DNA of 53,928 bases from a virus, in the IMG/VR virus record IMGVR_UViG_3300045988_144911, one strand, 5' to 3'. This document shows positions 12,157 through 53,033 of the stretch, one piece after another (positions within the stretch are counted from its first letter, which is position 1; every line of letters starts with the position of its first letter). A program made the translations under genes and the position numbers. The notes under the pieces are model-generated. The model did not search any database. It saw only the letters and a program-made list of their open reading frames with translations, and was not told where the DNA came from.

Positions 12157-13515
12157 TCAGAATCTGCGGCTCCGCCCCTTCCGGCTTGCCGCGCAAATAG
12201 CTTTTTTCTTTATCTCCTGAAGCCTCTCCCCGTCGGTCAGCTCCCTCTCCGGTGCTTTTGCAGGAACCGCCCTGCTCACACAGTAGTACCGGAGCGCGTC
12301 GCAAATGTGCGTGATTTCGTGCGGATCGGTCGCTGCGTCTCCCGGTCGGCTCTCAGAAAACTCAAGAAGCTGGAGGTTCTTTATCAGCACCCTGCACCCC
12401 TCGAAAACCCGCAGACGTGAGGTTTCCTCCCCGTCCATGCCGACGATCGGCTTTATATGCTCCTTGACGCACAGCCAACCGCTTATCCGCTCCGCGTTGC
12501 ACTTCGTGAACCTCACACCGCTCTCGGCGAAAAGCTCCGCGACGTTCTTTCCGGTGTCCTTTGTCCGCGACCACAGGTCAGGCGGCGCAAACGTCGCCTC
12601 AATCTTCTCGTCTCCGGTCATCTCCACGATCTTCTTTGCGGCGTCCCCGGCGATAAGGTTCGGCTCATGCAGCTCCCGGTATACGTACTCCTGCCCGGTC
12701 TCGTCAACGGCGATCCATAAAACCGCGCACATATCAAGCCCGTAGTCAATCGCCCGGTACCGTCTCCAGTGCGGCTGTATCTCGATATAAGGCACGACGT
12801 GAATCTTCGGTCGGAACTCGGAGAAAAACCTCCCCTCATAAGAGTACCAGTCTCCATACCTCCAAGCCGCCCTCTGCGCCGGAGGGAGCGACTCCAGCTT
12901 CTTTATATAATCGGGGTCAGCCTCCATCAGCGCCTGATTGTCCGTCACAAGGCTCTGTATAAAAACATAGTCGTCCGGGTTTTCCTCCGGATTGAAATCC
13001 CGCTCGATGAAAAGCCGCCTTATCCACTGCATCCCGACACCGCCGGGGTTGCAGGTGATGTATATCCGGTGCGGGAACGAATTTACGCCTCGGTTCGTCG
13101 CTTTTATGGCGTTGAACCACTCCTCTTTGAGCTGCTGTGCCTCATCAAGATAAACAATGTCCCATTCTTGTCCGTTATACTGTAAAGTATCCCCGTCGTT
13201 GGAACAATAGGAAAACTTTATCCTGCTTCCGTTTGGAAAGCAAAGGGACTTGTCCTTGTCCTTGTATACGGCATAACCGACGGTCTCAAGCCGCAGGGGA
13301 TTTATGTGGTTCTCCGTCAGCTCCACATAAGAGCGCCGGATTATCATCTGCTTTATCCCCGGATAGGATAAAGCCATAAGCAGCGCCTTGAACCGCACCG
13401 CCCATGACTTGCCGCCGGATCTCGCACCGCCAAAGCACACATATCTCTGAGTCGCCTCAAGAAACTCGATCTGCTTCGGCTGAGGACTGCCCAGCGTTAT
13501 CTTTATTTCGCCCAT
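12157..13515 (-). CDS. terL: terminase large subunit
   Basis: 452 aa; Walker A-like FGGARSGGKS; sits after the small subunit with a 13-nt overlap. Confidence 0.9.
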   Translation of the reverse strand: MGEIKITLGSPQPKQIEFLEATQRYVCFGGARSGGKSWAVRFKALLMALSYPGIKQMIIRRSYVELTENHINPLRLETVGYAVYKDKDKSLCFPNGSRIKFSYCSNDGDTLQYNGQEWDIVYLDEAQQLKEEWFNAIKATNRGVNSFPHRIYITCNPGGVGMQWIRRLFIERDFNPEENPDDYVFIQSLVTDNQALMEADPDYIKKLESLPPAQRAAWRYGDWYSYEGRFFSEFRPKIHVVPYIEIQPHWRRYRAIDYGLDMCAVLWIAVDETGQEYVYRELHEPNLIAGDAAKKIVEMTGDEKIEATFAPPDLWSRTKDTGKNVAELFAESGVRFTKCNAERISGWLCVKEHIKPIVGMDGEETSRLRVFEGCRVLIKNLQLLEFSESRPGDAATDPHEITHICDALRYYCVSRAVPAKAPERELTDGERLQEIKKKAICAASRKGRSRRF

Positions 13516-14006
13516 TCCTTCATGACGTCCGGCATCTCGATGATCACCTTCTGCTCCGTCTCAATCGGAGCATTGAAACCGCACATCGTAGCCGCCTGCT
13601 GTATAGCCTTGAGCGCAACGGTCGCGGAAGGAGGATCATATCCGCGTATGATCTTCCCGTTCTCATCCCTGCAGGCTTCTCCGTCCCTGCCTCGCATGAC
13701 AGGCTGAGCCGCCTCAAGCGCGTCGTCAGCTATCTTCTTCAGCTTCTTCAGCGTCTCGTCCCTCGTCCAGATCGAAAGGGAGGCGTTCTGCTCCCGCAGC
13801 TCTTTTATAAAATCCTGTATGTGCGGCATAGCGAAAAGGTGCGATGCCTTTGCCTGTGCTGTCGCTCTCTTTCCTTCAAGCCTGTATCCGGCTTTTATGT
13901 AGCTGTCGAACAGCGTCTCTCCGCTCGCGACGTTGTAGCAAAAATTTCTCTGCTTCTCCGTCAGATCGCGTGCGTTTCCGGACTTGTCCGTGTATCTCTT
14001 AGCCAT
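13503..14006 (-). CDS. terS: terminase small subunit
   Basis: ATG at 14006 after GGAAGGAGG. The LTEKQRNFCYNVASGETLFDSYIKAGY motif is typical of Terminase_2-type small subunits. Confidence 0.8.
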   Translation of the reverse strand: MAKRYTDKSGNARDLTEKQRNFCYNVASGETLFDSYIKAGYRLEGKRATAQAKASHLFAMPHIQDFIKELREQNASLSIWTRDETLKKLKKIADDALEAAQPVMRGRDGEACRDENGKIIRGYDPPSATVALKAIQQAATMCGFNAPIETEQKVIIEMPDVMKEWAK

Positions 14007-14081
14007 ATGTACCTCCTTCCGGTAAAAATTCAAAAGCCCCGCCGTCCCAACCGCCGCCCATTGTGTGCGGCACGAAAAAAA

Positions 14082-14101
14082 GGATATCTCCGGAGATATC
14101 C
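14082..14101. repeat. perfect 20-bp palindrome GGATATCTCCGGAGATATCC
   Basis: Self-complementary with no loop; lies in the leader between the candidate late promoter and terS. Confidence 0.9.
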
Positions 14102-14398
14102 ATGATATTATTGTATCAGATAAAAAGGGACAAAAGGGACAAATTTCGCTCCCCGAAAAAATTTTTTCGGATTTTTAAAAATTTTTTTCAAAAACCCCTT
14201 GACAAATGCACTCAAACGGTCGCCGAGGCTCTGAAGTCTCTCCGCAAAAGAACCAGGCTTTCGCAAACAGCTTTCGGCGACATCTGCGGCGGCATCCCCC
14301 TCCGCACGATCCAGAACTGGGAGAGCGGCGTCAGAGAATGCCCCGATTACGTCCTCTTCCTCATAAAATCCCACCTGAAGAGCAAAAATCTCATCTGA
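14102..14398 (+). CDS. XRE-family helix-turn-helix protein (start uncertain)
   Basis: C-terminal half LRKRTRLSQTAFGDICGGIPLRTIQNWESGVRECPDYVLFLI is a clear HTH. The N-terminal 30 aa are low-complexity and overlap the AT-rich control region. Confidence 0.6.
   Translation: MILLYQIKRDKRDKFRSPKKFFRIFKNFFQKPLDKCTQTVAEALKSLRKRTRLSQTAFGDICGGIPLRTIQNWESGVRECPDYVLFLIKSHLKSKNLI
14110..14140 (-). promoter_or_regulatory. candidate late promoter: extended -10 TGATACAAT (minus strand) with tandem 9-bp repeats upstream
   Basis: Reverse complement of 14110-14118 is TGATACAAT. AAAAGGGAC occurs twice in tandem at 14123-14140; the surrounding sequence is AT-rich. Confidence 0.3.
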
Positions 14399-14410
14399 CA
14401 CAATCCCGAC

Positions 14411-14451
14411 ACACCCGCGGCACATAAGTGATACGCGGGTGTTCTTTTTTT
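14411..14451 (+). terminator. rho-independent terminator
   Basis: 9-bp perfect stem ACACCCGCG/CGCGGGTGT followed by TCTTTTTTT. Confidence 0.8.
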
Positions 14452-14490
14452 GTGCTAAACTTTAATCAGCAAAAGAAAGGAGCATCCGAT

Positions 14491-14847
14491 ATGTACGCTT
14501 ATAACCCCTATAGCCAGCAGCAGGCTATGGCATACTCGCAGGATATGTATAACTCCCGCCAGTACCAGCAGCCCCGTCCTCAGTACCCGCAGGTCATCCC
14601 GGTGCAGGACGAGCTTACCGCGAGATCGGCTCAGATACCTATGGACGGTACCGACACCTACTTCTTCAACTCCCAAGCCGGAGAGATATACGCAAAGCGC
14701 CTCTCAATGGTCGACGGCTCGATCTGCTTCGATGTGTATAAAAAGCGCCTGCCGGAATACCCGGAAAAGGAGCGCTATGCCACCGTCGCCCAGCTCGACG
14801 AGATCTCCGCAAGACTGAAGAAACTCGAAGGAGGCGATGAGCAGTGA
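14491..14847 (+). CDS. accessory cassette protein A, Q/Y-rich N-terminus (118 aa)
   Basis: ATG after AAAGGAG; starts MYAYNPYSQQQAMAYSQDMYNSRQYQQPRPQYPQ; no family recognised. Confidence 0.6.
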   Translation: MYAYNPYSQQQAMAYSQDMYNSRQYQQPRPQYPQVIPVQDELTARSAQIPMDGTDTYFFNSQAGEIYAKRLSMVDGSICFDVYKKRLPEYPEKERYATVAQLDEISARLKKLEGGDEQ

Positions 14848-15071
14848 ACCCCGTCCAGATGATGATGCAGATGCTCACCTCCGGCGGAAATCCCGAGGCA
14901 ATCATGCGGCAGATCGTGTCGCAGAATCCCGTCCTTTCCCCGGCACTGCAGCTCTGTCAGGGCAAAAACCCGGCACAGCTTGAGAGTATATTTTACAACC
15001 TTTGCAAAAGCAAAGGCATAGACCCGCAGAGCATCGCCGCTCAGTACGGCATATCTCTGCCCCAAAAATGA
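14844..15071 (+). CDS. accessory cassette protein B, small helical protein with repeated NP motifs (75 aa)
   Basis: GTG start overlapping the upstream TGA, GAAGGAGG 8 nt upstream. Confidence 0.6.
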   Translation: MNPVQMMMQMLTSGGNPEAIMRQIVSQNPVLSPALQLCQGKNPAQLESIFYNLCKSKGIDPQSIAAQYGISLPQK

Positions 15072-15121
15072 CTATATCCGGCGCGCAGGATATAAATATA
15101 TCATCCGAAAGGAACAAAAAC

Positions 15122-15781
15122 ATGGAAAACGAGTACACATCCGGCTTTATCGCCGGGCAGAACACCAACCGCGGATACGGTTATAACGACGGTATGTGCG
15201 GCATGGGAGGAGGATGGTTTATCTGGATAATCCTCATATTTGCCATCTTCGGCGGCAACTGGTTCGGCGGCAGCCGGAACGCGGTCGACGAAAATGCCCT
15301 CTCAGCCACCATGCAGAGAGGATTTGACAACCGCACCGTCGTAAGCAAGCTCGACGGCATCACAAACGGTCTCTGCGACGGCTTCTATGCCCAGAACAGC
15401 ACCATGCTTAACGGCTTCAACGGCATCGGCATGGCAGTCAGGGACGCGCAGTATGCCGCGAAGGACTGCTGCTGCGAGACCAACCGCAACATCGATGCCG
15501 TCCGCTACGACGCGCAGAAGAACACCTGTGACATCACAAGCGCCATCCACGCGGAAGGCGAGGCGACCCGCGCCCTGATTCAGGCGAACACCGTTCAGGA
15601 ACTCCGCGACCGCCTTGAGGCAAAGGACAGGGAGCTTCTCACGGCTAACTTCAGCCTCAGTCAGCAGGCTCAGACCTACTCCCTCGTCAACGAGATACGC
15701 CCGGTCTCCAAGCCTGCGTATATCACCTGTTCCCCCTACGCCGCAAACGGAACCGGCTCCTGCCTCGGCTGCGGCTGTTAA
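15122..15781 (+). CDS. accessory cassette protein C, membrane-anchored Cys-rich protein (219 aa)
   Basis: ATG after AAAGGAAC. Has a GYGY plus Gly-rich TM segment (GGGWFIWIILIFAIFGGNWFGG), a CCC motif and a C-terminal SCLGCGC. Confidence 0.65.
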   Translation: MENEYTSGFIAGQNTNRGYGYNDGMCGMGGGWFIWIILIFAIFGGNWFGGSRNAVDENALSATMQRGFDNRTVVSKLDGITNGLCDGFYAQNSTMLNGFNGIGMAVRDAQYAAKDCCCETNRNIDAVRYDAQKNTCDITSAIHAEGEATRALIQANTVQELRDRLEAKDRELLTANFSLSQQAQTYSLVNEIRPVSKPAYITCSPYAANGTGSCLGCGC

Positions 15782-15891
15782 CCGGACCGGAGCCGCATAA
15801 AGCCATAAGCCGATAAGCGGCTCCATAAAACAAAAGCCCGGAGGGGAAGCTCTCCGGGTTCTCGCCTGAAAAAGGCTGAAAGGAAAATTTT

Positions 15892-16299
15892 ATGTGCTGC
15901 AATACCTGTAAGCTCTGCCCGAGGCTCGTCCTTTCGCAGGCAGTAACCTTCGCAAACAACACCCTGACGATAAACCTCCCCGCCGGTACCTATACCAACA
16001 GAGAGAAATACTGTATCGTCATCGCGCAGACCATCCCCGCGACCGCCACAATAAGCGCCCCTGTGGTGATAACCATAGGCACGGGAACGGCAACCTACCC
16101 GCTCCTCACCGCAGGCTGCGCTCCGGCTACCGCCGCAGACGTGAGAACAAGAACCAAGTACCCCACAAGGCTCGTCACCTCCGCCTCCGGCGCGTCGTTC
16201 AGAATGCTCGGCTGTACCTCCCGCGCCTGCGCAACCCCGACGCTCTCAACAATAGACGGCGGAGCAGCCGCAAACGCGACCCTCCCGACTGGTGACTGA
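15892..16299 (+). CDS. accessory cassette protein D, Cys-rich beta-rich protein (135 aa)
   Basis: N-terminus MCCNTCKLCP; T/A/I-rich body; RBS AAAGGAAA; preceded by two hairpins (15789-15824 and 15837-15858). Confidence 0.6.
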   Translation: MCCNTCKLCPRLVLSQAVTFANNTLTINLPAGTYTNREKYCIVIAQTIPATATISAPVVITIGTGTATYPLLTAGCAPATAADVRTRTKYPTRLVTSASGASFRMLGCTSRACATPTLSTIDGGAAANATLPTGD

Positions 16300-16301
16300 C
16301 C

Positions 16302-16883
16302 ATGCCGGCGGACGATATCCTCGCCGGACTTAAAGCCCGGTCGCTTGAGGGAGTGATGTTTCACGGCAGGATGCGCGAGTACTTCCTGTATCTCGGTCTC
16401 CGAGGCTACGCAGCCATGCACAGCTTCCATGAGACCGAAGAAAGACTCGGTGCCGAAAAACTGACGGACTACTTCATGGCGCAGAACGGCATCCTTATCC
16501 CGGAGAAATCCGCCGCCGCTCCCGACGTCATCCCGGCACAGTGGTACCGCATGAGACGTCAGGACACCGATGCCCAATGGCGGCGCAGAGCCGTCCGGGA
16601 CGGTATGACCGCATGGCGCGACTGGGAGAAGTCAACCGCCGTGAGCCTGAAAGACATGATCTTCCGGCTCTCCTCGGAAAACGAGTACGGCTGCTGCCGC
16701 CTCGCGGAGCAGAAGCTCTCCGACGTCGAGTCAGAGATCTCCGGAGCCGAGGACATGATCTTCGACCTTGAGTCGATAGAATATGACCTCCCGACCATAA
16801 TCGGCAGACAGCCCGACATCGCAAAGAAGTACCTCACGAAGATAACCTTACTCATGACCCCGGCGTGCGCGCTCGGCATCTGA
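16302..16883 (+). CDS. accessory cassette protein E, weakly ferritin-like four-helix candidate (193 aa)
   Basis: FLYLGLRGYAAMHSFHETEERLGAEKLTDYFMAQNG resembles ferritin helix A/B spacing, but the metal ligands look incomplete. Confidence 0.5.
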   Translation: MPADDILAGLKARSLEGVMFHGRMREYFLYLGLRGYAAMHSFHETEERLGAEKLTDYFMAQNGILIPEKSAAAPDVIPAQWYRMRRQDTDAQWRRRAVRDGMTAWRDWEKSTAVSLKDMIFRLSSENEYGCCRLAEQKLSDVESEISGAEDMIFDLESIEYDLPTIIGRQPDIAKKYLTKITLLMTPACALGI

Positions 16884-16887
16884 GCGC

Positions 16888-16909
16888 GTGACAGATTCGT
16901 GACAGATTT
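16888..16909 (+). repeat. two tandem 11-bp GTGACAGATT[CT] repeats (candidate integrase arm sites)
   Basis: Copies at 16888-16898 and 16899-16909; the same TGACAGATT core recurs twice at 17106-17129. Confidence 0.6.
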
Positions 16910-16994
16910 GAGTCTGAAATCCGATTCTGTCGTCTCATTTGCGAGACCACAGAATCAAACTCAAAACTCCCACAAACCCCGATAATACAAGGAA

Positions 16995-17028
16995 AAACCC
17001 GCATATCCAGCAGATACGCGGGTTTATT
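16995..17028 (+). terminator. rho-independent terminator closing the accessory cassette
   Basis: ACCCGC...GCGGGT stem followed by TTTATT. Confidence 0.6.
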
Positions 17029-17032
17029 CAAT

Positions 17033-17062
17033 TGGTGCGGGAAACGGGACTTGAACCCGTAC
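17033..17062 (-). other. tRNA 3'-end fragment (T-arm, acceptor strand and CCA); candidate attP core
   Basis: Minus strand reads ACGGGTTCAAGTCCCGTTTCCCGCACCA. No matching 5' acceptor strand or anticodon arm is present nearby, and the site lies beside the integrase gene. Confidence 0.7.
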
Positions 17063-17105
17063 AAAAAGTCCAAAAACCCCCGTAATCATTGGCTTTTTCA
17101 AATGT

Positions 17106-17129
17106 CATGACAGATTTCATGACAGATTT
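17106..17129 (+). repeat. two tandem 12-bp CATGACAGATTT repeats (candidate integrase arm sites)
   Basis: Copies at 17106-17117 and 17118-17129, overlapping the int stop codon; same orientation as the 16888 pair. Confidence 0.6.
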
Positions 17130-18172
17130 TCTGAAAAACGCTTGAAAACGTCCCTGTAATAGTCCTCGAGCTTATCAAAGAAAATGTCCTTCTTATCCCT
17201 CATGATATGCCCATAAACCTGTTGTACCATGTTCTCTGTCTCATGTCCGAGCATATCCGCGATGTATTTTACCGGTATTCCAAGCATTATCATGACCGAT
17301 GCGGCATAATGACGCAGCTCGTGGAAGGTGTAGTGTGCGCCGGGACACACTTCCCGCAAAACCTTCTGATACCTGTCATATATAACAAGCGGCTTCAGAC
17401 CGGTAATGTACTCAGCTTCCGGGTCACACTGCCTCTTCATGGCTGACTTAAGTACGGAGATCATTCTGACCGTCCGGTTCCCTGCTTTGGTCTTCGTCGC
17501 TTTTTCAATAAGCTGATTGTCTTCGTCCATGACCTTTGCGCGGCGAACCGAAATGATCCCGGACTTAAAATCGACATCCGACCATTTCAAGCCGCAGATT
17601 TCACTCATGCGCATTCCCGCCAGCGCGCCCAGAAGCACCGGCAGTTCTATTTCGGTGTCCCTGACTGCGGAAATCAGCTTTACAACATCTTCTTCGGTCG
17701 GTATGGTGATATCCGGCTTTTTTCTTTGCGGCAAAGTCGTATACAGCACGAAATCCGGTCTGAACATCTTCAGCGACGCAGAAAGAAGCCCGTGGGCGTT
17801 TCTGACGGTCTTCGGTGAATGTTCTGCCGCCTCAAGGTTTACAGCCCTTTGCACATCCTCCTGCGTCAAATCGAAAATGCGAATGTCCCGTAAGCCTTGC
17901 AGATAATTTTTCTGATACCCTTTGTATTCCCTGTATGTCTTCGGCGACAGTACGTTCTTCTTTGCTTCCGCATAACGCGTTATTGCTTCGTCAACCGTGA
18001 TGTTATCCGCGCGGTTGCCTTTTTTGTTTGCATCAAACTGCGCCGCCTCAAGCTGCACGGCTTTTTTGTTTTTCCCGGTAAAGCTCCGGTAATGTGCTTT
18101 TCCGTCCGGATCAGTATAATCCAGCACCCGCGCCCTGTACGACCCGGACGGCAGCCTGTCTACCTTAACCAC
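17117..18172 (-). CDS. int: tyrosine recombinase / phage integrase
   Basis: 351 aa; C-terminal HELRHYAASVMIMLGIPVKYIADMLGH...VYGHI fits the R-H-R-Y catalytic pattern; GTG start. Confidence 0.9.
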   Translation of the reverse strand: MVKVDRLPSGSYRARVLDYTDPDGKAHYRSFTGKNKKAVQLEAAQFDANKKGNRADNITVDEAITRYAEAKKNVLSPKTYREYKGYQKNYLQGLRDIRIFDLTQEDVQRAVNLEAAEHSPKTVRNAHGLLSASLKMFRPDFVLYTTLPQRKKPDITIPTEEDVVKLISAVRDTEIELPVLLGALAGMRMSEICGLKWSDVDFKSGIISVRRAKVMDEDNQLIEKATKTKAGNRTVRMISVLKSAMKRQCDPEAEYITGLKPLVIYDRYQKVLREVCPGAHYTFHELRHYAASVMIMLGIPVKYIADMLGHETENMVQQVYGHIMRDKKDIFFDKLEDYYRDVFKRFSENLS

Positions 18173-18588
18173 AGCATTATCCTCTGATATGCAGACACCA
18201 CATACCGTATGTATCCCATGTTCCCGTGATGGCTGTCGTATATCACAAGTACCGCCGCGCCGACAACGAAAAGCGTCAGAACGCCGAAAAGAACCGCAAT
18301 CTTGCGGTTTTTGTCTTTTATGACCTTCGTGTATATGCCGATTATCTTGTCCTCAAACACCGTGTCGCGCTTTCCTGTCGGCTCCGCCTTTGAGATCCCG
18401 GCATACTCGTCCACCGACCCGCCGAGAGCCTTTATCACTTCCACAACCGCCTGAAATGCCGGATTTTCCGTGCTTCCCGACATGATCCTCTGCACCGTCC
18501 CGGCAGGAACCCCGCTTATGTCGGCTATCTGCGCCAGCGTGAGATTTCTTTCGTCCTTGAGTCTGTTCAGATACTCCGAAAGTGTCAT
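18160..18588 (-). CDS. XRE-family HTH regulator with C-terminal transmembrane anchor
   Basis: HTH LTLAQIADISGVPAGTVQRIMSG plus TM IAVLFGVLTLFVVGAAVLVIY. Ends in TAG, the only TAG stop I found, and overlaps the int start by 13 nt. Confidence 0.75.
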   Translation of the reverse strand: MTLSEYLNRLKDERNLTLAQIADISGVPAGTVQRIMSGSTENPAFQAVVEVIKALGGSVDEYAGISKAEPTGKRDTVFEDKIIGIYTKVIKDKNRKIAVLFGVLTLFVVGAAVLVIYDSHHGNMGYIRYVVSAYQRIMLWLR

Positions 18589-37491: not shown

Positions 37492-37832
37492 CCCTGAAAA
37501 ACAAAATCCTGAAAGCCCTCGGCAGAGAAGAGGTGCAATGGTACAGAGAATTCGGTGTCCTCGCTCCCTTCTGCCCGTATTGCGGAGAACCCGCCTACGA
37601 CACGCACAGATGCGCTTTCTGCGGAAGAAAATATATCTGGAGAGATTCGCCCCACCCGCCGACAATCGCTGAATACGGCGATTATACAGCGGCTCAGACC
37701 GGCGGCTCCATCCTCATCTTCAAGGGAGACCGGCTGGTATATCATGCATCGTATACAGGCGACCCCATGACGGAGGACGAGCTGAAAGACCATATAGCCT
37801 TTGTCTTCGGGCTGGGTATGACAGATGACTGA
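37488..37832 (+). CDS. zinc-ribbon-containing hypothetical protein
   Basis: CPYCGEPAYDTHRCAFCG. Confidence 0.55.
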   Translation: MTLKNKILKALGREEVQWYREFGVLAPFCPYCGEPAYDTHRCAFCGRKYIWRDSPHPPTIAEYGDYTAAQTGGSILIFKGDRLVYHASYTGDPMTEDELKDHIAFVFGLGMTDD

Positions 37833-38895: not shown

Positions 38896-38938
38896 GAAAA
38901 GACCGGCACACCAAAAACGATGTGCCGGTTTTCTTTTT
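38896..38938. terminator. bidirectional rho-independent terminator between the convergent operons
   Basis: 8-bp stem CCGGCACA/TGTGCCGG flanked by an A-run on one side and TTTTCTTTTT on the other. Confidence 0.8.
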
Positions 38939-39146
38939 ACGCCGTAACGAAGGCGAATATCTTATCGGTTATACTGCTCTTCAGCCGGTTGTAGGTCGAC
39001 AGACTGATGTTCAGCGCAAGCGTAGTCTCAATCCCGCTCTTCCCGCGCCGCAGATACGGTATCACCTCAAGCTCACGGTCGGTAAAACCGCATTCCGGGA
39101 TAAGCCGCTCCCACAGCGCGGACGGATAATCGTACCTCACCATCAC
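38937..39146 (-). CDS. small LuxR/GerE-type HTH regulator
   Basis: FTDRELEVIPYLRRGKSGIETTLALNISLSTYNRLKSSITDKI; its start overlaps the giant gene stop. Confidence 0.6.
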   Translation of the reverse strand: MMVRYDYPSALWERLIPECGFTDRELEVIPYLRRGKSGIETTLALNISLSTYNRLKSSITDKIFAFVTA

Positions 39147-42100
39147 GCTTTACCCGCTTTGCGGAGGACTTTGAGTATGTCCGCCTCGGTGATGCCGTAT
39201 TCTCCGTATGTCTTCAGCATCTTTTTGATGTACGCCGCTCTCTTCGATACGTCAATGTAGATAAGCTGTTCCTTCACTTCCTTCTCCATCTTCCTGTGCA
39301 TCTCGTCGTAAACCTCGTCGTCGGTCTTGGAGCCTCCGTCCTCCCTCTCCCGCCGCTTCATTGCGGATTCGATGAAGTCTTCAAACTCCTTGCCCTCAAG
39401 ACTGCTCACGGCGGATACAGAGCTTACAATGCTGTTCACCTTAGCCTTGTACGAACCGGGATTGACCTTCCTCAGCTCATACAGATCGTCCATCAGAGAG
39501 GATTTCATAACGGCATTCTTTATCTTGGTCTCGGTGTACCCGTGATAAATCATGTCCCGCTTGATCTTCACATAGTCGGAATACCTGCCCCGGTCAACAG
39601 CGTCGCGGAGAACATCGTAATAAGCCTCAGTTACCGCCGCCTTGTTCGTAAGCTCAACGTCCTTCCATGCCTTCAGATAGTTGTACTGAGTCATCGGTGA
39701 GACAAGACCGGAGTCAAATATGATTCTGTCAAGACCCGCCTTGAAATCACGGATTACGTTCTTCGCCGACCATCCGAACAGATTGGATGCCGCATTCACA
39801 ATGTCCTGAAGCATTCCGAGATTCGGACGACCGCCGTTCTGCGAGATGAGATACTTGTTTATCAGCCCTCCGAGGTCGGTAAGAGCCGCAAGATCCATTC
39901 TCTCAACAGTCTTTCCGAACGCGCCGGATTCGATCGCCGTCCATACCGTTTCAGCAAGCTGCCATACGGGAGCAAGCCCTCCGGACAGTATGTCCTTTAG
40001 AGCGTTTTCACTGAACGATTTCAGAATATCGTCCCACAGCTCGTCGTCGTCGTCTCTGTCAAGAGTTCCGCGCCAGAGCGATACAAGCGTTGTTATCGCC
40101 GACACCGCGACCGTGTTCGCAACGGAGGAAGCGATAACCTTGACAAGTTTCTTTTTTGCGCCCGGCTTTCCTCTCGCCGCGTCGTTTATCGCGGAGGTCA
40201 GATATGAATACTGCTTCAACGGTTCGTTCTGGAATGCATACAGGAACTTGCTTGCCGTCCCCGCATTCTGAACAGCCATCGACGAATCAAGCGCCGACTG
40301 AACGACCTGTGTCTTTCCGATGACCTCAGAGAATTTGCTGTTGACCGCTTCAAAGTATTCCTTGCTTCCCTTGGTATACTTGTTCTGCGCGTCGATCTCG
40401 GCTTTGCTCATTCTCCATAGCCTCGACCACGTCCACATATCCGCAAACTCTGCGCCCGAATCCATTGCGTCGTTTATTTTTACGAGAAAGTTTTTCGGTT
40501 CGTTGTTATACAGTTCCTCAAAGCTCTTTCTCGTCATGTTCTCCGACGCGCCCCAGTTCTTCAGCTTTGCAACTCCCGAATGCTCAAGCATTTCGTTCAT
40601 CTCCGCTTTGACCTGCGACGGGCTTAAATCCTTGAAGCTGTTCCATGCTTTAATTCCGGCTGACGAGAATTCCGGCAATGCGCGGAATATCGACATCGGC
40701 TGTTTCAGTACGACTGAGATGTTTTTCGCAACCGCCGCCGCCTTGTAGTTCGACAGCAGTTTTTCGGAAAACGCTTCGACTCCCTGACTTGCATATATTT
40801 CGGTTCCGCTCAGATTGTTGATGAGGTTTCTGTAGAATTTATCTGCCTGACCTCCATACTGCCTTATGAGTGTCTGTTTCAGACTTGTCCCGTTTCCAAG
40901 CCTCAGCGCGTACATCTTCTTCGCGTTGTCAAGCTCCTGCGCAAAGGCGTTGTACTGCGCCATGTTAGTCAGATGCCGTCCGATAACGTCGTAAATGTCC
41001 TCGGCAACAAGTGCTTTTCCGGCGCGTCCGGTTCTCTCTTTGGTAAAGCTCAGACCGAGAAGATTCATTTCGTAGTTCGGATTGTCGGCAATCGCGCGGT
41101 AATCGTCTGCCGTCCTCATCGGGAAGTAGTTCTCCGTCGTGTACTTCTTGTAACCGTACATCGCCATTGATACTTCGTTTCCGAGCCGCGCCGCCTCTCC
41201 GTTCAGGATCGCGGATATCCTGTCAGCACACGCTATCTGCGCGTCAGTCAGAGACCCGATGATCTTGTCTGCGTCAGCCTCGTTCAGAACAAGTTTTCTG
41301 CTCTGCTCGTTGAATACGCTCACTGTTCTGAAAATTCTCCAGTTTTTTGTTCTGTTTTCTTTGGTCTGCACGTCAGCCTTTGCTTTGAATTTTCCAATGA
41401 CAAGCCCGCCGTCTTTGTTGAACAGGCATCTTCTCGAATCCTCCTGATTCAGGAGCAGATGTACCGTCATCAGCTGTGAAGGCGTTGCACGGAGTGTGCC
41501 GGTCGAAAGGTTGAGCGTGATCTCCTTGGCTTTCTTTCCGTGCCACCCCTCCGGGATTCCTTCTTTTCCAATCGCGTCAGACATAAGCGACGACAGCAGC
41601 TCGATGTTCGCTCCGAATTTGTCCTGACACTTTCTGAATGTCCGAAGCTGTTCGTCCATTACGTCAGAATCAATGCCGTTGAAAAATCCGTATGCGTCGA
41701 TAGAACCGTAGTGTACCCACTCAAGCCCTTTTCTGAGAGTGTTAAAACCCGTCAACACCCGCGTTTTTCTGTCCCTGTTTTTCGCAAGCCCGATCTCCTT
41801 CTGCGCCTGCCAAGACTTCGCCGCAAGCCCTTCTCTCGGGTCGTAAAGCCGCTTGATCTCCGCCGTCAGGTGCTTCAGCTGATTGAATATTCCGTTAAGC
41901 TCCTCAAGCTGCGCCGAGGAAAGCTCCGTCAGCTTCTTTCCCTGATTGGCTTCCACCCACGCCGCCATTCTCTCAAGCAAGCCGGAGTCAACGATAAGCT
42001 GCTTCTCCTGAACATTCAGGTCGGTCTCGGCAATGTCAAGCCCGTTTTTGCCGTCCTCTGCCGTTGCGTTATTCGCCGCTTCGATGACCCTCAATATCCT

Positions 42101-45100
42101 GTCGTATACACCCTGATTCGCCACGCTCTTTCCTGTCGTGATGTCAACAGCCGCAAGGAATTCCATAAGCGGCTTCCTCATCGCCTCGGTGAAGTGGTTC
42201 TCCGTCGTCGGACCGGAGAGCATCGACGATGCTTCGGTATACCTGCGCAGCACCCTGTTCCGGAGAATCGTCTGTTTCTGCTTCTCGGAACGGTTTTTGA
42301 ACTGCTCCGCATATTTTTCCTTCAGCGAAGTTATGGCTTTTTCTCTCTGCTCCTTGAGCTGCGCTATCCGCTTACGCATGGCATTTATACTAACCGTATT
42401 TTCCCCGTTGTAAAGAAGCTCGGATATCGCTCTGCCGATGGATTTCTTGACGAGCTGTTCTTCGTAGGAAAGCACGTTGCTTTCTCCGATGCCGTTGATA
42501 CGCATATTTCTCGCGAGGTCGGCAATAAGCACAGCCTGTTCCGTACCGTCTGTTATGTTGTCGGGGAAATACTCCGGATAGATTTCCGACAGCTCGGCAT
42601 ATACCTCCGAAAGAGCGCGTCCCTTCTGCTCATTCACAAGCCCGACGATACCGAAAAGCGATTTCCTGAAATCCGACCACGTTTCAAATCCGGCAGCTTT
42701 CGCAACAGAAGCACGGATCTCTGTCGGAACGAAAATCTTCTCCGTGCGGAGCTTCTTTTTTACGTCTCTCGCTTCGTTGTATTCGTCTCTCAGAGGCGAC
42801 ACCCAATCATATATCTCGTTTTCGATGTCTCCGACCATTGCGGCAAGAATGTCCGCGTCGTGCCTGTAGTCCCTTCCGAGAGCTTTGCCGTCGAGACGAT
42901 TCTCATAAGCATACCGGAAAAGCCTTTTAACCGTGTCCAGAAGCTGTTCTCTCGGAATGCGTTCTCCCGATGTCTCCGAAAGATCCGCGATCCGGTTGAG
43001 AAATTCATTGAATTTGTACGGATATCCGCTCTTGTAATATCTCTCTTTCGAGAATTTCTCAAGCACGTTCTTTATGGCTTTGTCTTCTGCTTCTATGGTT
43101 TCCGTTTCACTTTGTGCAGATTTCACAAGAGAATGTCTCTCGTCAGAGGAATCTTTTTCAATGCTCTGCATAGACTGTGTATTGACAACTGAATCATTTT
43201 GTGATACACTGTTGTCAGAGCGTTGAGCACCTGTATTAACGGAATTCTTCTGAATTCCAAGAGGAGGCGACGCTTTTATTTTTTTGTTCGGTCTCAGACC
43301 GATGTTATAAACATAGCTGTCGCCACCGCTTCTACGGACGTTTGCAAGAAGGTCGTAAACTTCGTTGTCTATCTGCACCGTCTTGACGTAATAATCCCAA
43401 AAGCCAATACCATTGTGCGCAGAATTACTCTTGCCCTGCTCCGCGTTGCTCCCGGTATAATCCGCATTCTCAACAAGTTCAAAGATATCTCCGTCCGCGC
43501 CTGCGCGGATTTTTGCTTTCCAACCCTTTTCGGAAGACTGATTGTCTCCGTAAATGTTTTTCTTGACATCCGTATCTTCAAACGTTGCATAGTACGCATG
43601 ACCGTTCCGGATGAATTTCGCGGTTCTTCCACGGTAGTCATTCTTCATGATCTCCTCAAACCGCTTCATTCTTTCCTTGTTCGTGAGATTCTTTATGTCG
43701 TCGCTTGTTTCGTATACCTCAATTCCGTCTTTGTTCGTTCCGGCAAGCGACCACCGTATATCCCGGTTCCCGCTGTCAAACCTCTCGGTAAGCGGAATGA
43801 CGTTGCCGCTGTCGTCGTAGGTTATCGGGTCGGCGGATTTGACCTGTTCGGAACTTCTTATGACGTATGAAAATCCGCGCGAAACCGGCTTTCCGTCAAC
43901 AAGGTCGCCGCCCTCGTCAAGGATTATGCTGTCATAATCAAGCCCGTTTTCGTCAATGAATTCCGCAATGTCATATCCGTCAGTCCAGTCGGGAAGCCCG
44001 GATTCCTGAACCTTGCTCAGCCCGTATTCGGAACGCATTTTATCAAAGATTTCCCGGCATTCCGGTTTCCTTGTGTCAAACGCGTTTCCGAGGTTGGCGT
44101 AAACTTCATAGAGAGAACTATTGTCTCCGGGTTTTGCATAACGGGAGGCATATTTTTTGTTCTCGGTGAAATACGACCAGTCGCGGAACTCGGTAAAGCC
44201 GCCGCCCTTCTTTGAGCCGTGCCAGAACAGTCGGTCATACCCGTTCGCCTTGGCTGCTTCATCCACAAGTCTGCGCTGTTCTTCGGTATCGCCCGATTCC
44301 GCCGCCTCGTCAACAAGCCTCTGCTGTTCCTCGACATTTCCGGATTCAACGGCTTTCATGTACTCGTCGTTCGCACGGGCGAGAGAATATCTGAACCTGT
44401 CAAGCCCTGACTGCTCTCTCACTTCACCGGTCTCGTAAAAGTGTTTTATGTCGTTCACGATCCTTGTGGGGTTGATGTTGCCCTCGTATTCAAGCGTGCC
44501 GACGGTTTTTCCGGTTTCGTCCGAAAGGTCAACAGCAAAATAACCACCGTCCGAAAACTCATTCGCGAATCTGCGGATAGTGGTATATTGCTCTTTTGAC
44601 GGCTCGGTCGAAGCGGAAATGTCAAGTCCGGGAGTCTCCGCCATGATACGGATATTTCCGTCATTCATGAAGCGGACAAGCGCATCGGTTCCCTTGGTAT
44701 TTTCGTATATCGCATCGATGGCTCTGTGGTCTTCACCGCGCGAACCGTAATGCTGCCCCTTCTCGCCCGAGAAATTCAGCATCTTTCCGTTCGGCACGAT
44801 ATATCCCGCGTCGTAGAAATACGGTGTATACCCGAATTCCTTCACCGCCTGTTTGCGGAAATAGTCGGCTTCACTCAGCCCCGATTTTTCGATAGCAGCC
44901 AGTTCTCCGGTGCTTGCTCTGCCCGAACCGCTTTCCGAACTTTTTTCAATGTCGGCTCTCAGCGCATCGCGGCGGTCAACAAGGTCGGCATATCCGGATT
45001 CTTTTCTCCAAGCCTGATATGCTTTCATGCCTTCCGCAATATTGTCGCTGTTTATAGCCTTGCTCAAATCGTCATTTGCTTTTTTGAACGCGTCGGATTT

Positions 45101-51930: not shown

Positions 51931-52740
51931 TCACTTTACCTCGCTCCCGTTGCACCACCCGTTAGCGGTACACCCGCCGAAGCCCTTCAGCAGATACGGA
52001 TGCCGCGATTTTCCGGGTCGGTATATCCTCATGACCTTTGCTTTTCCCGGCTTGCACCCGAAGCCGATAAGCGCGTTTGCGTTCCGGTAATGCTTTTTTC
52101 CGGTAAAGATTACGGTGTCGCCGACGGATATCACCTTTGAGGGATGAAGAAGCCCGTCCACGTCGCGCCGGAAGTCGTCCATCGTCAGCCCGAACTTCTT
52201 CAGCCAATGGTCGCAGTCGGCGTGATTGTTTGCATAGCCCTTTTTGTACGCCTCTCTGTGCGATACGATGACCGAGGCTTCCCATCCCCATCTGCGGCAG
52301 ATGTCGGCACACAGAGAAACGGCAGCGTTGTAGCAAGCCTTGAAGTACGTCTCGTCCTTCAGCCCGTCCTCGCATATCTCAAACTGTATGTGCGGATACG
52401 GAGGATAGTTGTAAGAGCCTTTCTTGCCGTTACCCACGCCCCACGCGCATATCTCCTCCGGAAGCAGATGAAGTATGCCGACCGTGCCGTCAGCAAGCCG
52501 TCCGATCATATAGTGAACCGCCTTGTTCACGTTCGGTCTGTTCCAGTGATTGCCGTACCTGTTCCTCCCGATCTTTGCGATTATCTCCGCGCGGTCGGGA
52601 TCGTCGTCAGACGGCTGACAGTACCTCGCCACCGAGGTCTGGTTAACTCCGGTTGAGTGTACCACGATCCCGACCGGCTCACACTCCTGATATACCGCAT
52701 AGCACCTTGACTGTGTGTGGAGGCATTCGGTTATATTCAT
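51931..52740 (-). CDS. endolysin, N-acetylmuramoyl-L-alanine amidase (Amidase_2/PGRP type) with C-terminal binding domain
   Basis: GIVVHSTG ... AVHYMIG ... AWGVGNG ... HIQFEICE ... VSHREAY...HADCDHW parallels the PlyG-type amidase layout. Confidence 0.8.
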   Translation of the reverse strand: MNITECLHTQSRCYAVYQECEPVGIVVHSTGVNQTSVARYCQPSDDDPDRAEIIAKIGRNRYGNHWNRPNVNKAVHYMIGRLADGTVGILHLLPEEICAWGVGNGKKGSYNYPPYPHIQFEICEDGLKDETYFKACYNAAVSLCADICRRWGWEASVIVSHREAYKKGYANNHADCDHWLKKFGLTMDDFRRDVDGLLHPSKVISVGDTVIFTGKKHYRNANALIGFGCKPGKAKVMRIYRPGKSRHPYLLKGFGGCTANGWCNGSEVK

Positions 52741-53033
52741 TATCTGCCCTCCTCACCGTCGTCGGCACCGGTCTTGTCCCCGGAAAGCTGCTTGTATATC
52801 TGATGCGCTCCCGTCGCCGCAAGCCCGGATACTATGCCCACAGCGACCGCCGTGATGACGTCCCCGGCAGGGAAGTCCGGCATTATGTACATTCCCAGTA
52901 CGCCAAGCCCTCCTCCGAGTATGCCGCATATCACCGGAAGCCACTTGTTGTCAAGCGGTGTCGCCTTGATAAGCTGCGCGGCAAGATAGCAAATGACCGT
53001 TATCGCCGCAATTCCCGTTATTCCGAAATCCAT
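52740..53033 (-). CDS. holin (phage_holin_4_1 / LL-H-like)
   Basis: 97 aa, three hydrophobic segments, charged C-terminus, GIVSGLAATGAHQIYKQL motif; sits immediately upstream of the endolysin. Confidence 0.8.
   Translation of the reverse strand: MDFGITGIAAITVICYLAAQLIKATPLDNKWLPVICGILGGGLGVLGMYIMPDFPAGDVITAVAVGIVSGLAATGAHQIYKQLSGDKTGADDGEEGR

Follow-up and report, generated by a model that had tools for sequence, protein, structure and literature searches.

In the 53,928-nucleotide stretch of viral DNA analysed here (the window), we found a cassette of five plus-strand genes (A–E) whose first three represent a single copy of an uncharacterised gene module that is very widespread among phages and combines a membrane-anchored, cysteine-rich protein with small partners. 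The explanation that we tentatively favour, with low confidence, is that the cassette is a mobile, conserved accessory operon for a membrane-anchored stalk-and-tip complex at the host envelope. The features of the region are collected in Table 1.

Table 1. Cassette A–E and its surroundings in the window.
Feature	Position	Strand	Basis or remark
Perfect 20-bp palindrome GGATATCTCCGGAGATATCC, then TTTTTTT on the minus strand	14082..14101	−	listing of terminator-like sites; sequence
Remnant ORF, 98 aa	14102..14398	+	comparison of the window with L004 and L009; Pfam; PHROG
Intrinsic terminator, 9-bp GC-rich stem and T-run	14411..14451	+	folding, shuffles; unchanged in L004 and L009
Candidate extended −10 promoter element TGCTAAACT	14453..14461	+	inferred from sequence; TGCTAAAAT in L004 and L009
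Five-gene cassette A–E	14491-16883	+	between divergent terminase gene (TerS) and tRNA-type attP
Gene A, 118 aa, AAAGGAG ribosome-binding site	14491-14847	+	ORF listing, homologue alignment
Gene B, 75 aa, GTG start	14844-15071	+	ORF listing, homologue alignment
Gene C, 219 aa, module core	15122-15781	+	homologue alignments, hydropathy, phrog_16490
Two stem-loops, 15789-15824 and 15835-15860	15789..15860	+	folding; immediately past the C stop codon
Gene D, 135 aa	15892-16299	+	AF2 model, BFVD fold search, phrog_31654
Gene E, 193 aa	16302-16883	+	profile matches to prokaryotic ferritins; start 2 nt past D
Left pair of TGACAGATT direct repeats, candidate integrase arm-type sites	16885..16909		kept in L004, L009 and L011
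Hairpin, 13-bp arms	16995..17025	−	folding on both strands
attP core, copy of tRNA 3′ end (reverse complement TGGTGCGGGAAACGGGACTTGAACCCGT)	17033..17060	−	alignment with integrated relatives
Right pair of TGACAGATT repeats	17104..17129		overlaps integrase gene 3′ end
Integrase gene	17117-18172	−	Pfam Phage_integrase on the L009 orthologue

The ORF listing and the sequence confirm all five plus-strand ORFs reported at this place in an initial annotation. Each is under purifying selection (dN/dS of 0.04–0.45 in comparison with two related phages; 0.04–0.09 for gene A), which, together with the large numbers of relatives of C and D, indicates that A–E are genes and not chance ORFs. The tight coupling claimed for the set holds for A and B, where B starts with a 4-nt overlap of the A stop codon, and for D and E, but not for C and D, which are separated by a 110-nt gap holding two hairpins. 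Searches of Pfam, PHROG and NCBIfam bear out the statement that no function can be assigned by homology.

Gene A consists of a Tyr/Gln/Pro-rich low-complexity N-terminus, which is kept in homologues and agrees with its description as Q/Y-rich, a conserved central domain of ~50 aa (V..EA..G..D..IY.K..G..Y) and, at its C-terminus, a coiled-coil-like helix; searches of Pfam, PHROG and NCBIfam give no match, and a signal peptide is absent. Gene B, described as helical with NP motifs, indeed encodes a helical protein, which is rich in Met and Gln, carries three conserved NP motifs and has a KGIDP..G tail. It likewise has no signal peptide, and its matches are weak (XPC-binding, E = 0.27; phrog_21220, E = 0.012).

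Gene C runs from an acidic N-terminal tail through a Gly-flanked aromatic transmembrane segment (residues 32–50), the conserved motif NGLCDGFYAQN..MLNGF, a CCCETNRNID..Y....TCD unit that some homologues have twice, and a coiled coil (~161–189) to a PAY..CSP....GCGC C-terminus. Consistent with its earlier assignment as a membrane protein, the hydrophobic segment has a 19-residue Kyte-Doolittle mean of 1.8, and a core with a mean of ~2.4 over 13 residues is present in every homologue. The CCC motif and the GCGC end, both noted before, are nearly invariant across the family, while the number of GF.G and CCC units differs among homologues. From these features, C is predicted to cross the membrane once and to combine Cys-rich repeats with a coiled coil. 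Judged by the charge difference across the membrane segment, 54 of 69 variants favour an N-out/C-in topology, and N-in/C-out is predicted for a natural anchor-swap variant (L034). C matches phrog_16490 (E = 1e-11) and has at least 7,963 relatives in databases, and all 458 IMG/VR matches to the C motif were confirmed as relatives; neither these relatives nor the 2,536 relatives of D have a Pfam, NCBIfam or PADLOC assignment. The AF2 monomer model of C failed (pLDDT 47), for which a shallow alignment may be the reason.

The hairpins said to part A–C from D–E are real, with a combined folding energy of −37.6 kcal/mol (z = −3.5). A strong stem-loop 3′ of C (z < −2) is found in 80 of 98 distinct loci, with a median of −22 kcal/mol in 50 nt; its position, but not its sequence, is kept across the family, and examples with trailing T-runs occur in CPD1 and L006. 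The stem-loops may terminate transcription partially or stabilise the 3′ end of the mRNA, dividing A–B–C from D–E.

Gene D, which matches phrog_31654, carries an N-terminal Cys cluster (C..CKLC) followed by a beta domain of eight strands in the AF2 model (pLDDT 77.5), in line with its description as beta-rich. Against BFVD, the model retrieves many tail-fibre proteins (E = 1e-4 to 1e-2, probability 1.0, TM-score ~0.45–0.5); against the PDB there is no significant fold match, the top hit, a baseplate/tail-fibre complex of a phage, having E = 0.054. In its predicted fold, D thus resembles tail-fibre distal domains, the likeness being at the fold level only. Homologues of D form 373 clusters at 50% identity, the best 150 of which are mostly stand-alone proteins of ~70–190 aa. 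No natural C–D fusions were found, and the eight inspected among the few longer D-containing proteins look like assembly chimeras or N-terminal extensions. In other lineages, position 4 is taken by a second family that aligns end to end with Pfam BclA_C (E = 0.005, below the Pfam cut-off), a weak likeness to the C-terminal domain of exosporium BclA. Neither family has a signal peptide.

The description of E as ferritin-like with incomplete ligands is upheld by profile matches to prokaryotic ferritins (E = 1e-3 to 3e-2), which are collinear over helices A–B and in some cases over the full length, and by the loss of the ferroxidase ligands. The E family keeps four invariant residues (H21, H40, E109 and E145), one per predicted helix, and has no Pfam match. 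It has 27 close relatives only; distant E-like genes occur in CPD1, HMD-PC1, L012 and L025. E is present in 13 of 94 loci, an unrelated protein, DUF7841, standing in its place elsewhere. On these profile matches, E is a degenerate ferritin homologue, the helical and lineage-specific fifth gene.

To describe the distribution of the module, we used 99 non-identical C loci, with denominators of 93, 94 or 98 depending on the feature. A lies upstream of C in 86 of 93 loci and B in 63 of 93, and a beta-rich gene lies 3′ of C in 91 of 94 (D in 30, the second family in 61); the order A–B–C–D is strict in 50 loci. Carriers include temperate and lytic-looking Clostridia phages as well as six C. perfringens phages. 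The module adjoins attP in temperate phages, follows the holin and endolysin genes in a lytic-looking 45-kb phage that has it in full, and lies among early genes in the C. perfringens phages, of which six records match, phiCP13O, phiCP39O and phiCP26F not being among them. C without the rest of the module is found in Crassvirales, in a Bacteroides phage (isolated on Bacteroides uniformis) and in archaeal (Methanomassiliicoccales) viruses. The earlier view of the cassette as a moron holds for its position, an accessory transcription unit with terminators at a prophage end adjoining attP, as judged by folding and comparison with integrated relatives. It does not hold in the sense of a one-off peculiar to this prophage, since the collinear order A–B–C, stem-loop, beta-rich fourth gene and helical fifth gene recurs in ~100 distinct phage loci. 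Terminators bound the unit in the window and in CPD1.

The left edge of the cassette region is a terminator-like or operator-like palindrome just upstream of the divergent TerS gene, kept in L004 and L009. The next ORF, previously taken for a small XRE-type HTH gene, is a deletion remnant by comparison with L009 and L004, and we rejected it as a regulator of the cassette. Specifically, two genes of 150 and 203 aa, the latter ending in the HTH, and a perfect TTGACA-17-TATAAT promoter stand in the counterpart region of L009, and all of them are lost in L004; of this promoter, the window retains only the −35 hexamer TTGACA (14199–14204), fused in frame to the HTH tail. The N-terminal ~35 aa of the ORF are read-through of AT-rich regulatory DNA, and its C-terminus is the HTH tail, with PHROG transcription-regulator matches and a Pfam HTH_3 match (E = 5e-4, 20.5 bits) under the cut-off of 23. 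The terminator proposed downstream of this ORF is well supported: a stem at 14411–14442, followed by TCTTTTTTT, folds with −21 kcal/mol (z = −3.85; none of 200 shuffles is as stable). It shields the cassette from upstream transcription. Immediately past it, 30 nt 5′ of the gene A start, lies a candidate extended −10 element, and the cassette probably has its own promoter of this type; a scan for consensus −35/−10 sequences finds no plus-strand promoter at this element.

At the other end, the proposed attP is supported by the integrated relatives L004 and L011, in which a complete tRNA-Gly(TCC) lies past E, followed by host genes; four TGACAGATT repeats flank the attP core. The hairpin regarded as the 3′ terminator of the cassette is real, with −21.6 kcal/mol (z = −4.6) and a following T-run on the minus strand, but only −18.4 kcal/mol and no T-run on the plus strand. 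Because the T-run is on the minus strand, the hairpin looks more like a terminator of the integrase gene, or a bidirectional one, in which case it may possibly end the cassette transcript too.

These data led us to the stalk-and-tip reading. C is stalk-like in that the number of its GF.G/CCC units varies, it has a coiled coil and its monomer model fails; position 4 is tip-like in that the model of D matches BFVD tail-fibre proteins and the alternative family is BclA_C-like. Coupling of C and D is suggested by their Cys clusters, which sit at the very end of C and the very start of D, and by the overlap of the C and D ORFs in some loci. The operon would thus offer five positions, with A, B and C constant at positions 1–3 and followed by a conserved stem-loop or terminator, a small beta-rich protein at position 4 (family D here, a weakly BclA_C-like family elsewhere) and a helical protein at position 5 (ferritin-like E here, DUF7841 elsewhere). 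C would sit in the host cytoplasmic membrane via its Gly-flanked aromatic helix, and its Cys-rich repeats and coiled coil would drive oligomerisation into a stalk, while the N-terminal Cys cluster of the position-4 protein would dock on the Cys-rich C-terminus of C, perhaps via metal or disulphides. A and B would serve in the cytosol, in assembly or tethering, and be overproduced along with C. Several points argue against this arrangement. No natural C–D fusions were found, the topology predictions for C differ among variants, D resembles fibre tips at the fold level only, and the BclA_C match of the alternative family is sub-threshold. The terminator-like hairpin between C and D suggests unequal stoichiometry, unlike a 1:1 stalk and tip; D and its alternative, having no signal peptides, could not reach the bulk of C if it were outside the cell; and the high conservation of D is unlike that of a host-specific receptor binder.

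The cassette could instead encode an accessory virion fibre, which we consider unlikely. C would then be a trimeric shaft held by its hydrophobic N-terminus, position 4 an exchangeable receptor-binding tip, and A and B assembly chaperones, and the set would assemble in the cytoplasm and travel on the particle as a fibre at its head, neck or side. The tail-fibre-like predicted fold of D, the BclA_C-like alternative, a classic trimeric fibre tip, and the occurrence of two unrelated tip-type families at one position, like receptor-binding protein swapping, are in accordance with such a fibre, as are the lack of signal peptides in A, B and D, which fits cytoplasmic assembly, and the failed monomer model of C, typical of intertwined fibres. 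In addition, late operons of L006-type phages and of cr116_1 have the module inside them or as their last part, and depositors annotated crAss homologues of C as 'viral fiber' or 'spike'. However, virion attachment domains are normally lineage-specific, whereas C keeps the same transmembrane-like N-terminus in a phage combining a P22-type portal with an SU10-type adaptor, in phages named as siphoviruses or podoviruses, in Crassvirales and in viruses of archaea. In CPD1 and the Bacteroides phage C3_41T2LP, the module is surrounded by early or recombination genes, and in the window it forms a transcription unit of its own, directed away from the late operon. Furthermore, only the six records of C. 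perfringens phages match it, there is no match in crAss001, and the ~60% identity of D over the best 120 relatives listed is unlike host-range determinants.

Class III holins such as T4 gpT share with C its size and layout (~220 aa, one N-proximal transmembrane segment, large C-terminal domain), and the module lies a few genes past the holin and endolysin genes in L006-type phages, CPD1 and cr116_1. Nevertheless, it is very unlikely that the cassette is a lysis-timing or membrane-permeabilisation accessory in which C, with its large non-membrane domain, acts like gpT as a one-pass holin or antiholin and A, B and D as its regulators. A recognisable holin and endolysin are already present in every phage examined, no holin family matches C, and Cys-rich repeats are foreign to holins. 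The window has separate Phage_holin_5_2 (E = 2e-23) and Amidase_2 genes, indicating that the cassette is not the lysis system, and it lies far from these genes, on the opposite strand.

A lysogenic-conversion moron of the kind suggested initially, expressed from the prophage and building, in a spore-forming Clostridia host, a structure of the envelope or spore surface by mother-cell assembly, like coat or exosporium proteins, would fit the moron position with terminators, the abundance of Tyr, Gln, Cys and Gly in the cassette proteins, the ferritin-like E, the BclA-like position-4 alternative, the missing signal peptides and the presence of C. perfringens among isolated hosts. We regard it as highly unlikely, because the host range of C spans Crassvirales, the B. 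uniformis phage and Methanomassiliicoccales viruses; a spore-specific role is unlikely with such a host range. The full module also occurs in C. perfringens phage isolates whose examined stretches carry no annotated integrase, and in the lytic-looking 45-kb phage; the suggested resemblance of C to YjcZ finds no support in NCBIfam, where neither YjcZ nor coat families match; and the base composition of the cassette does not depart from that of the rest of the phage.

Finally, a metal-handling or redox module, in which C and D would use their conserved Cys clusters to bind metal or Fe-S on the inner face of the membrane and E would supply or buffer iron, is extremely unlikely: the eight or nine conserved Cys in C and five in D, the ferritin descent of E with its invariant residues and the charge bias towards a cytoplasmic bulk domain of C fit it, but E is confined to a few loci and has lost its ferroxidase ligands, profile searches match no metalloprotein family, and the Cys spacing of the module proteins is not that of a known cluster-binding motif.

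Returning to the stalk-and-tip complex, we suggest that it would be produced and work at the envelope of the infected or lysogenic cell, where its most plausible roles would be in the control of phage entry or exit, e.g. superinfection exclusion, or interference with receptors or injection. In this lineage, the module forms a moron placed between TerS and attP, bounded by terminators of its own and probably driven by an extended −10 promoter of its own.

Five plus-strand genes, A to E, occupy the stretch between the small terminase gene (TerS) and attP. All five are present in the ORF list and in the sequence between TerS and the integrase gene (int), as the initial annotation had claimed, and dN/dS values of 0.04–0.45 against two related phages indicate purifying selection on every one of them. 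GC content is 0.52–0.59 in the cassette and 0.53–0.57 in the adjacent late genes. Searches of the five proteins against Pfam, NCBIfam, PHROGs and PADLOC returned only PHROG families with no assigned function, and no PADLOC defence model matched at E ≤ 0.1, in accordance with the earlier statement that no function could be assigned.

Coordinates of the cassette genes, their neighbours and the lysis genes of the window
Feature	Position	Strand	Basis or remark
Gene A	14491-14847	+	ORF list and sequence
Gene B	14844-15071	+	GTG start 4 nt inside the end of A
Gene C	15122-15781	+	ORF list and sequence
Gene D	15892-16299	+	ORF list and sequence
Gene E	16302-16883	+	ORF list and sequence
Small terminase gene (TerS)	13503-14033	minus	divergent left neighbour of the cassette
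Integrase gene	17117-18172	minus	right neighbour of the cassette
Phage_holin_5_2 (E = 2e-23) adjoining Amidase_2 endolysin	51931-53033	minus	domain scan of the window

The cassette is preceded by the strong terminator that had been proposed for it, a stem-loop at 14411–14451 (−21 kcal/mol, z = −3.85) followed by seven T residues. The two hairpins said to separate A–C from D–E likewise lie between C and D and reach −37.6 kcal/mol (z = −3.5). The proposal that a terminator at 16995–17028 bounds the cassette stands only in part: the hairpin, at 16995–17025, is real, but its T-run lies on the minus strand, and it is therefore primarily the integrase terminator, possibly bidirectional. A scan for consensus −35 and −10 elements detected no classical promoter upstream of A. 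The sequence from the terminator to the start of A is kept in the window and its close relatives L004 and L009, and it includes, after the terminator, TGcTAAA(A/C)T, which we infer to be a candidate extended −10 element; the cassette probably has its own promoter.

The small XRE-type HTH gene placed ahead of the cassette by the initial annotation turned out to be promoter DNA fused to the tail of another gene. The corresponding region of L009 contains two genes, one of 150 aa and one of 203 aa that has this HTH at its end, along with a perfect TTGACA-17-TATAAT promoter. The window ORF at 14102–14398 is a deletion fusion that puts the −35 hexamer in frame with the HTH tail of the 203-aa gene, and the −10 of the upstream TTGACA promoter is lost. 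As an XRE/Cro-type gene, the ORF scores 20.5 bits against HTH_3, below the Pfam cut-off of 23, and covers positions 1–35 of the 55 in the profile. In L004, everything is deleted down to the terminator and the −35 hexamer alone remains. The window (14102–14398), L009 (8120–9290) and L004 (9150–9290) thus make a nested deletion series in this divergent regulatory region, and, judging by the sequence comparison, the variable locus adjoining the cassette is being eroded.

Several further regulatory features were observed in the window. Immediately ahead of TerS on the minus strand, the late-operon leader (14082–14145) contains a perfect 20-bp palindrome and a T-run; further upstream are a tandem AGGGACAAA repeat and the extended −10-like element TGATACAAT. 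In sequence, the leader resembles a promoter whose transcripts would have to pass a terminator by antitermination. Two candidate late-gene regulators are a sigma-70-family protein (regions 2 and 4) encoded by the phage at 37825–38364 on the plus strand and, where the early and late arms meet, a small minus-strand ORF (38937–39146) whose product, read by eye, has a LuxR/GerE-like HTH. In the lineage of the related locus L099, a sigma-r4/GerE-like 79-aa gene lies directly upstream of A. The distal end of the late operon is a single 3,810-aa ORF (39143–50575, minus strand) for a 'polyvalent protein' with LPD23, ADP-ribosyltransferase (ART-PolyVal) and putative metallopeptidase (DUF6782) domains; polyvalent proteins probably enter the host cell together with the phage DNA. 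Beside the integrase, a repressor-like HTH_3/HTH_31 protein (18160–18588, minus strand) has a hydrophobic, transmembrane-like C-terminal end (IAVLFGVLTLFVVGAAVLVIY) and may be a membrane-tethered XRE regulator.

The position of attP beside the cassette is supported by three features. Positions 17033–17060 are a copy of a tRNA 3′ end; four TGACAGATT repeats flank this core; and the integrated relatives L004 and L011 have a complete tRNA-Gly(TCC) gene after E, followed by host genes that include a cation ATPase and Cu-oxidase_4. Since the window joins int and the cassette through attP, it represents an excised or circular phage genome. L009 and L004 carry different tRNA 3′-end copies at the place of 17033–17060, with the arm repeats and the cassette unchanged, and the differing cores among close relatives indicate that a single phage lineage has changed its integration target.

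The moron of Hendrix and colleagues is reportedly an autonomous accessory transcription unit in lambdoid and other prophages. The cassette resembles it in lying between the conserved TerS and attP/int at a prophage end, in having a terminator before it and a hairpin after it, and in being transcribed against its neighbours; it differs in having the same base composition as the rest of the phage and five genes rather than one or two. The moron position proposed initially holds for the prophage end and the terminators; the core is also found in late and early operons elsewhere. The organisation in the window lineage is that of a moron, a known kind, and its content is an undescribed five-position module.

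Relatives of C number at least 7,963 in the database, a family of at least about 8,000 clusters at 90% identity, and those of D number 2,536. A tblastn search with C matched 32 phage records, six of them from C. perfringens phages. Iterated local HMMs over 50 loci revealed a strict A-B-C-D order. In IMG/VR, the motif C[DN]G[FG]YAQN gave 458 matches, every one of which proved to be a C relative, and the addition of 80 IMG/VR loci gave 99 non-identical C loci for synteny counts. Upstream of C, A is found in 86 of 93 loci and B in 63 of 93. Downstream, D follows C in 30 of 94 loci. Among the loci without D, 66 have an ORF of ≥80 aa immediately 3′ of C, and in 61 of these it belongs to a second beta-rich family of ~140 aa that takes the place of D. 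Position 5 is held by E in the window lineage, by a distant E in phages CPD1 and HMD-PC1 and the related loci L012 and L025, and elsewhere by a DUF7841 protein. By this shared gene order, the cassette is one copy of a widespread module.

The genomic surroundings of the module vary. It adjoins attP and int in the window lineage, every relative found for which carries the cassette, and in the L099 lineage. In a 45-kb phage that encodes a DNA polymerase and a primase, the module ends the late operon, after the holin and a CHAP endolysin, and in the C. perfringens phages CPD1 and HMD-PC1 its neighbours are a KilA/antirepressor gene on one side and recombination genes on the other. It is positioned between TerS and the capsid gene in crAss-like cr116_1 and among recombination genes in Bacteroides phage C3_41T2LP; in a Methanomassiliicoccales virus, C follows a DGR reverse transcriptase, with an integrase gene ~4 kb further downstream. 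The A-B-C core, being present also inside late and early operons of lytic-looking phages, is thus not a lineage-specific add-on, and, as six records in all among C. perfringens phages carry the module, it is mobile and dispensable.

Some individual loci show peculiarities of their own. The C homologue of Methanomassiliicoccales virus vir215 (L053, 3152–5759), given as phrog_16490 in the record, has immediately upstream of it a tail protein and a reverse transcriptase of the kind found in diversity-generating retroelements. CPD1 (L001, 5173–5796) has an insertion between B and C, an HNH-type homing-endonuclease-like gene, C is split into two places in Clostridium phage CPQ4, and an I-HmuI-like endonuclease lies directly upstream of C in C3_41T2LP; homing elements seem to target the module. 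Furthermore, C ends ~1.1 kb from the contig end in some thirty related IMG/VR contigs of 42–47 kb (within L092–L126), which suggests a genuine genome terminus or an assembly-breaking repeat just downstream of the module.

A strong GC-rich stem-loop 3′ of the C stop codon is a further common element, found at z < −2 in 80 of 98 distinct loci. It has a median of −22 kcal/mol within 50 nt and is followed in many loci by a T-run; its position is constant, its sequences differ, and in CPD1 and the related locus L006 it is a scored terminator. A-B-C is therefore the constant unit, with positions 4 and 5 behind a putative attenuator, and A-B-C is probably more highly expressed than the latter.

Protein C is composed of an acidic N-terminal tail, a Gly-flanked aromatic hydrophobic helix, GF.G-type units and a C-terminal part in which a coiled coil is followed by a PAY..CSP..GCGC tail. 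Two motifs, NGLCDGFYAQN and CCCETNRNID..Y....TCD, are nearly invariant, the second being duplicated in some homologues. Consistent with the membrane anchor first assigned to C, the hydrophobic helix is found in every homologue, with a Kyte-Doolittle 13-residue mean of ~2.4. The charge difference (positive-inside rule) favours N-out/C-in in 54 of 69 variants, a weak but consistent bias. In the related locus L034 (2987–3691), a C variant homologous to that of L030 from GDIQRGFD onward has a canonical signal-anchor after a Lys/Arg cluster in place of the Gly-rich aromatic anchor; it is strongly N-positive, predicting a topology opposite to that of the rest of the family. The AF2 monomer model of C, built with 121 sequences, is poor (pLDDT 47, pTM 0.14). 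No relative of C was found in Pfam, in NCBIfam or, with a profile, among PDB sequences, and 39 diverse A and 43 diverse C homologues gave no consistent Pfam family. The YjcZ family of sporulation proteins, which we take to be NCBIfam TIGR01732, consists of tiny (~30–50 aa) Gly-flanked transmembrane proteins. The resemblance to it that had been suggested could not be upheld: C has no NCBIfam match at E ≤ 1 and is 219 aa long with a large conserved non-membrane domain. As a holin, C was rejected as well, no holin family being matched and the window's holin and endolysin lying elsewhere.

Protein D was predicted to be beta-rich, and its AF2 model (pLDDT 77.5) indeed contains eight strands. Against PDB folds, the best match is a phage baseplate/tail-fibre complex at E = 0.054, with none at E ≤ 0.001; against BFVD, homologues of D come first, followed by many tail-fibre proteins at E = 1e-4 to 1e-2 with TM-scores of ~0.45–0.5. 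With Foldseek probability 1.0, the model superposes on portions of such proteins (annotated 'T7 tail fibre', or 'tail fiber protein' in Pseudomonas phage Epa13 and Xanthomonas phage FoX6); the resemblance would be to the distal (tip) domains of tail fibres. Unlike those domains, D stands alone, has a Cys cluster at its N-terminus and belongs to a strongly conserved, not hypervariable, family, and no sequence-level link to tail fibres was found. Among the matches listed, D is a stand-alone protein of ~130 aa and never forms the terminal part of a long fibre. When the D profile was run against 1.84 billion representatives, no genuine C-D or fibre-D fusion was found among the few longer proteins read: they are either D fragments attached to unrelated sequence (TerS, integrase, CHAP, ROK kinase or half of C) or proteins with N-terminal extensions.

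The family that replaces D gives an end-to-end alignment with Pfam BclA_C (E = 0.005; 17 bits, far below the cut-off of 38). In the BclA exosporium filament, which assembles without signal peptides, a stalk carries a trimeric C1q-like BclA_C tip. The module is similar in that a stalk-like protein is encoded just upstream of the BclA_C-like one and signal peptides are absent. It differs in having no collagen repeats, in encoding stalk and tip as separate genes and in including non-spore-formers among its hosts; furthermore, the window carries D, not the BclA_C-like protein. No sequence relationship was detected between D and the BclA_C-like family or between E and DUF7841. The candidates crAss gp023 and DUF7841 found no support as D homologues in hhalign; a BFVD match of D to a 'DUF7841 domain-containing' crAss protein is therefore no proof that DUF7841 has the D fold. 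The DUF7841 protein of L006 had no tblastn match in the phage collection.

Of the small upstream proteins, A begins with a Y/Q/P-rich low-complexity stretch and ends in a coiled-coil tail, with a small conserved domain between them, and its profile matched only coiled-coil noise among PDB sequences. B is helical and Met/Gln-rich with NP motifs. Assignment of B to the STI1/XPC-binding domain was rejected (E = 0.27 and 11 bits, the Pfam cut-off being 26; NCBIfam rad23 E = 0.068), and its TAL-effector matches in the PDB profile search contain no single significant stretch, pointing to an artefact of repeats or composition. E appears ferritin-like with incomplete ligands, as was first read: its profile matches many prokaryotic ferritins among PDB sequences at E = 1e-3 to 3e-2 and is collinear with them over helices A–B, for several over the full chain (Ftn; Archaeoglobus fulgidus 1s3q, Thermotoga maritima 1vlg). 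In Pfam, no model, ferritin included, matches E at E ≤ 1. Of the ferroxidase ligands looked for (Glu on helix A, ExxH on helix B), Glu17 is replaced by Ser and His53 by Gly in the HMMER alignment of the window protein, and, unlike ferritins, the E family has its own invariant residues, H21, H40, E109 and E145. Judged by reading the sequences, none of the proteins A, B, D and E has a signal peptide.

From these features, we tentatively propose a membrane-anchored stalk-and-tip complex acting at the cell envelope. C would be a membrane-anchored, oligomeric, Cys-rich stalk, and position 4 would supply a tip-type beta domain, either the tail-fibre-tip-like D or the BclA_C-like protein. D, through the Cys cluster at its extreme N-terminus, would face the Cys-rich extreme C-terminus of C, and A and B may be cytosolic helpers co-produced with C. 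The probable place of action of such a complex would be the envelope of the infected or lysogenic cell, with exclusion or the control of entry or exit as possible roles. Superinfection-exclusion proteins (lactococcal Sie2009, S. thermophilus Ltp, T4 Imm) are small, phage-encoded, membrane-anchored, dispensable, mobile and located at module boundaries. The likeness of C to them may be one of function, as an analogy only, with no relationship in sequence or fold; they are single genes, each restricted to a host or phage group, whereas C is conserved in more than one phylum and accompanied by as many as four partner genes.

The chief rival reading, that of an accessory virion fibre, is in our view unlikely. 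Fibre-like folds and the absence of signal peptides speak for it, but the membrane-type anchor is conserved across virus types, the genomic contexts are non-structural and the module is dispensable. Three further readings are far less probable. A spore or envelope moron is improbable, and the spore-surface role suggested in the initial annotation is disfavoured by homologues in a Bacteroides phage, crAss and archaeal viruses and by the lytic-looking phages among the carriers. Lysis control is scarcely plausible either, because the window has its Phage_holin_5_2 holin and Amidase_2 endolysin outside the module. Metal handling is of similarly low probability.

The stalk-and-tip proposal can be extended, somewhat more doubtfully, to a new class of phage membrane-anchored assembly, common to gut viruses of Firmicutes, Bacteroidota and methanogenic archaea, with exchangeable tips (D or BclA_C-like) and fifth genes (E or DUF7841), that serves a general, membrane-located step of the infection cycle. 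If so, that step would be, for instance, the exclusion of competing viruses or the organisation of entry, assembly or exit sites, and would have no characterised counterpart. We found no paper that deals with the module, with DUF7841 or with the crAss 'spike/viral fiber' genes; those found on module-carrying or related C. perfringens phages give no function and no virion proteomics for module proteins. The B. cellulosilyticus crAss paper has a 'tail spike', which is another protein.

C is among the larger phage protein families with no Pfam entry or function. Its hosts span Clostridia to Bacteroides to methanogenic archaea, nearly always with the same small partners and the stem-loop. The module is widely kept, yet is present in only some C. 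perfringens phages and Crassvirales, and is thus probably important for gut-phage fitness; candidate roles are phage-phage competition, envelope interaction and host range. As culturable phages carry it (CPD1, 17DYC and HMD-PC1; Bacteroides phage C3_41T2LP), the question is experimentally testable. Even if the module proved to be an ordinary side fibre or exclusion protein, thousands of 'hypothetical' gut-phage genes would gain a new annotation.
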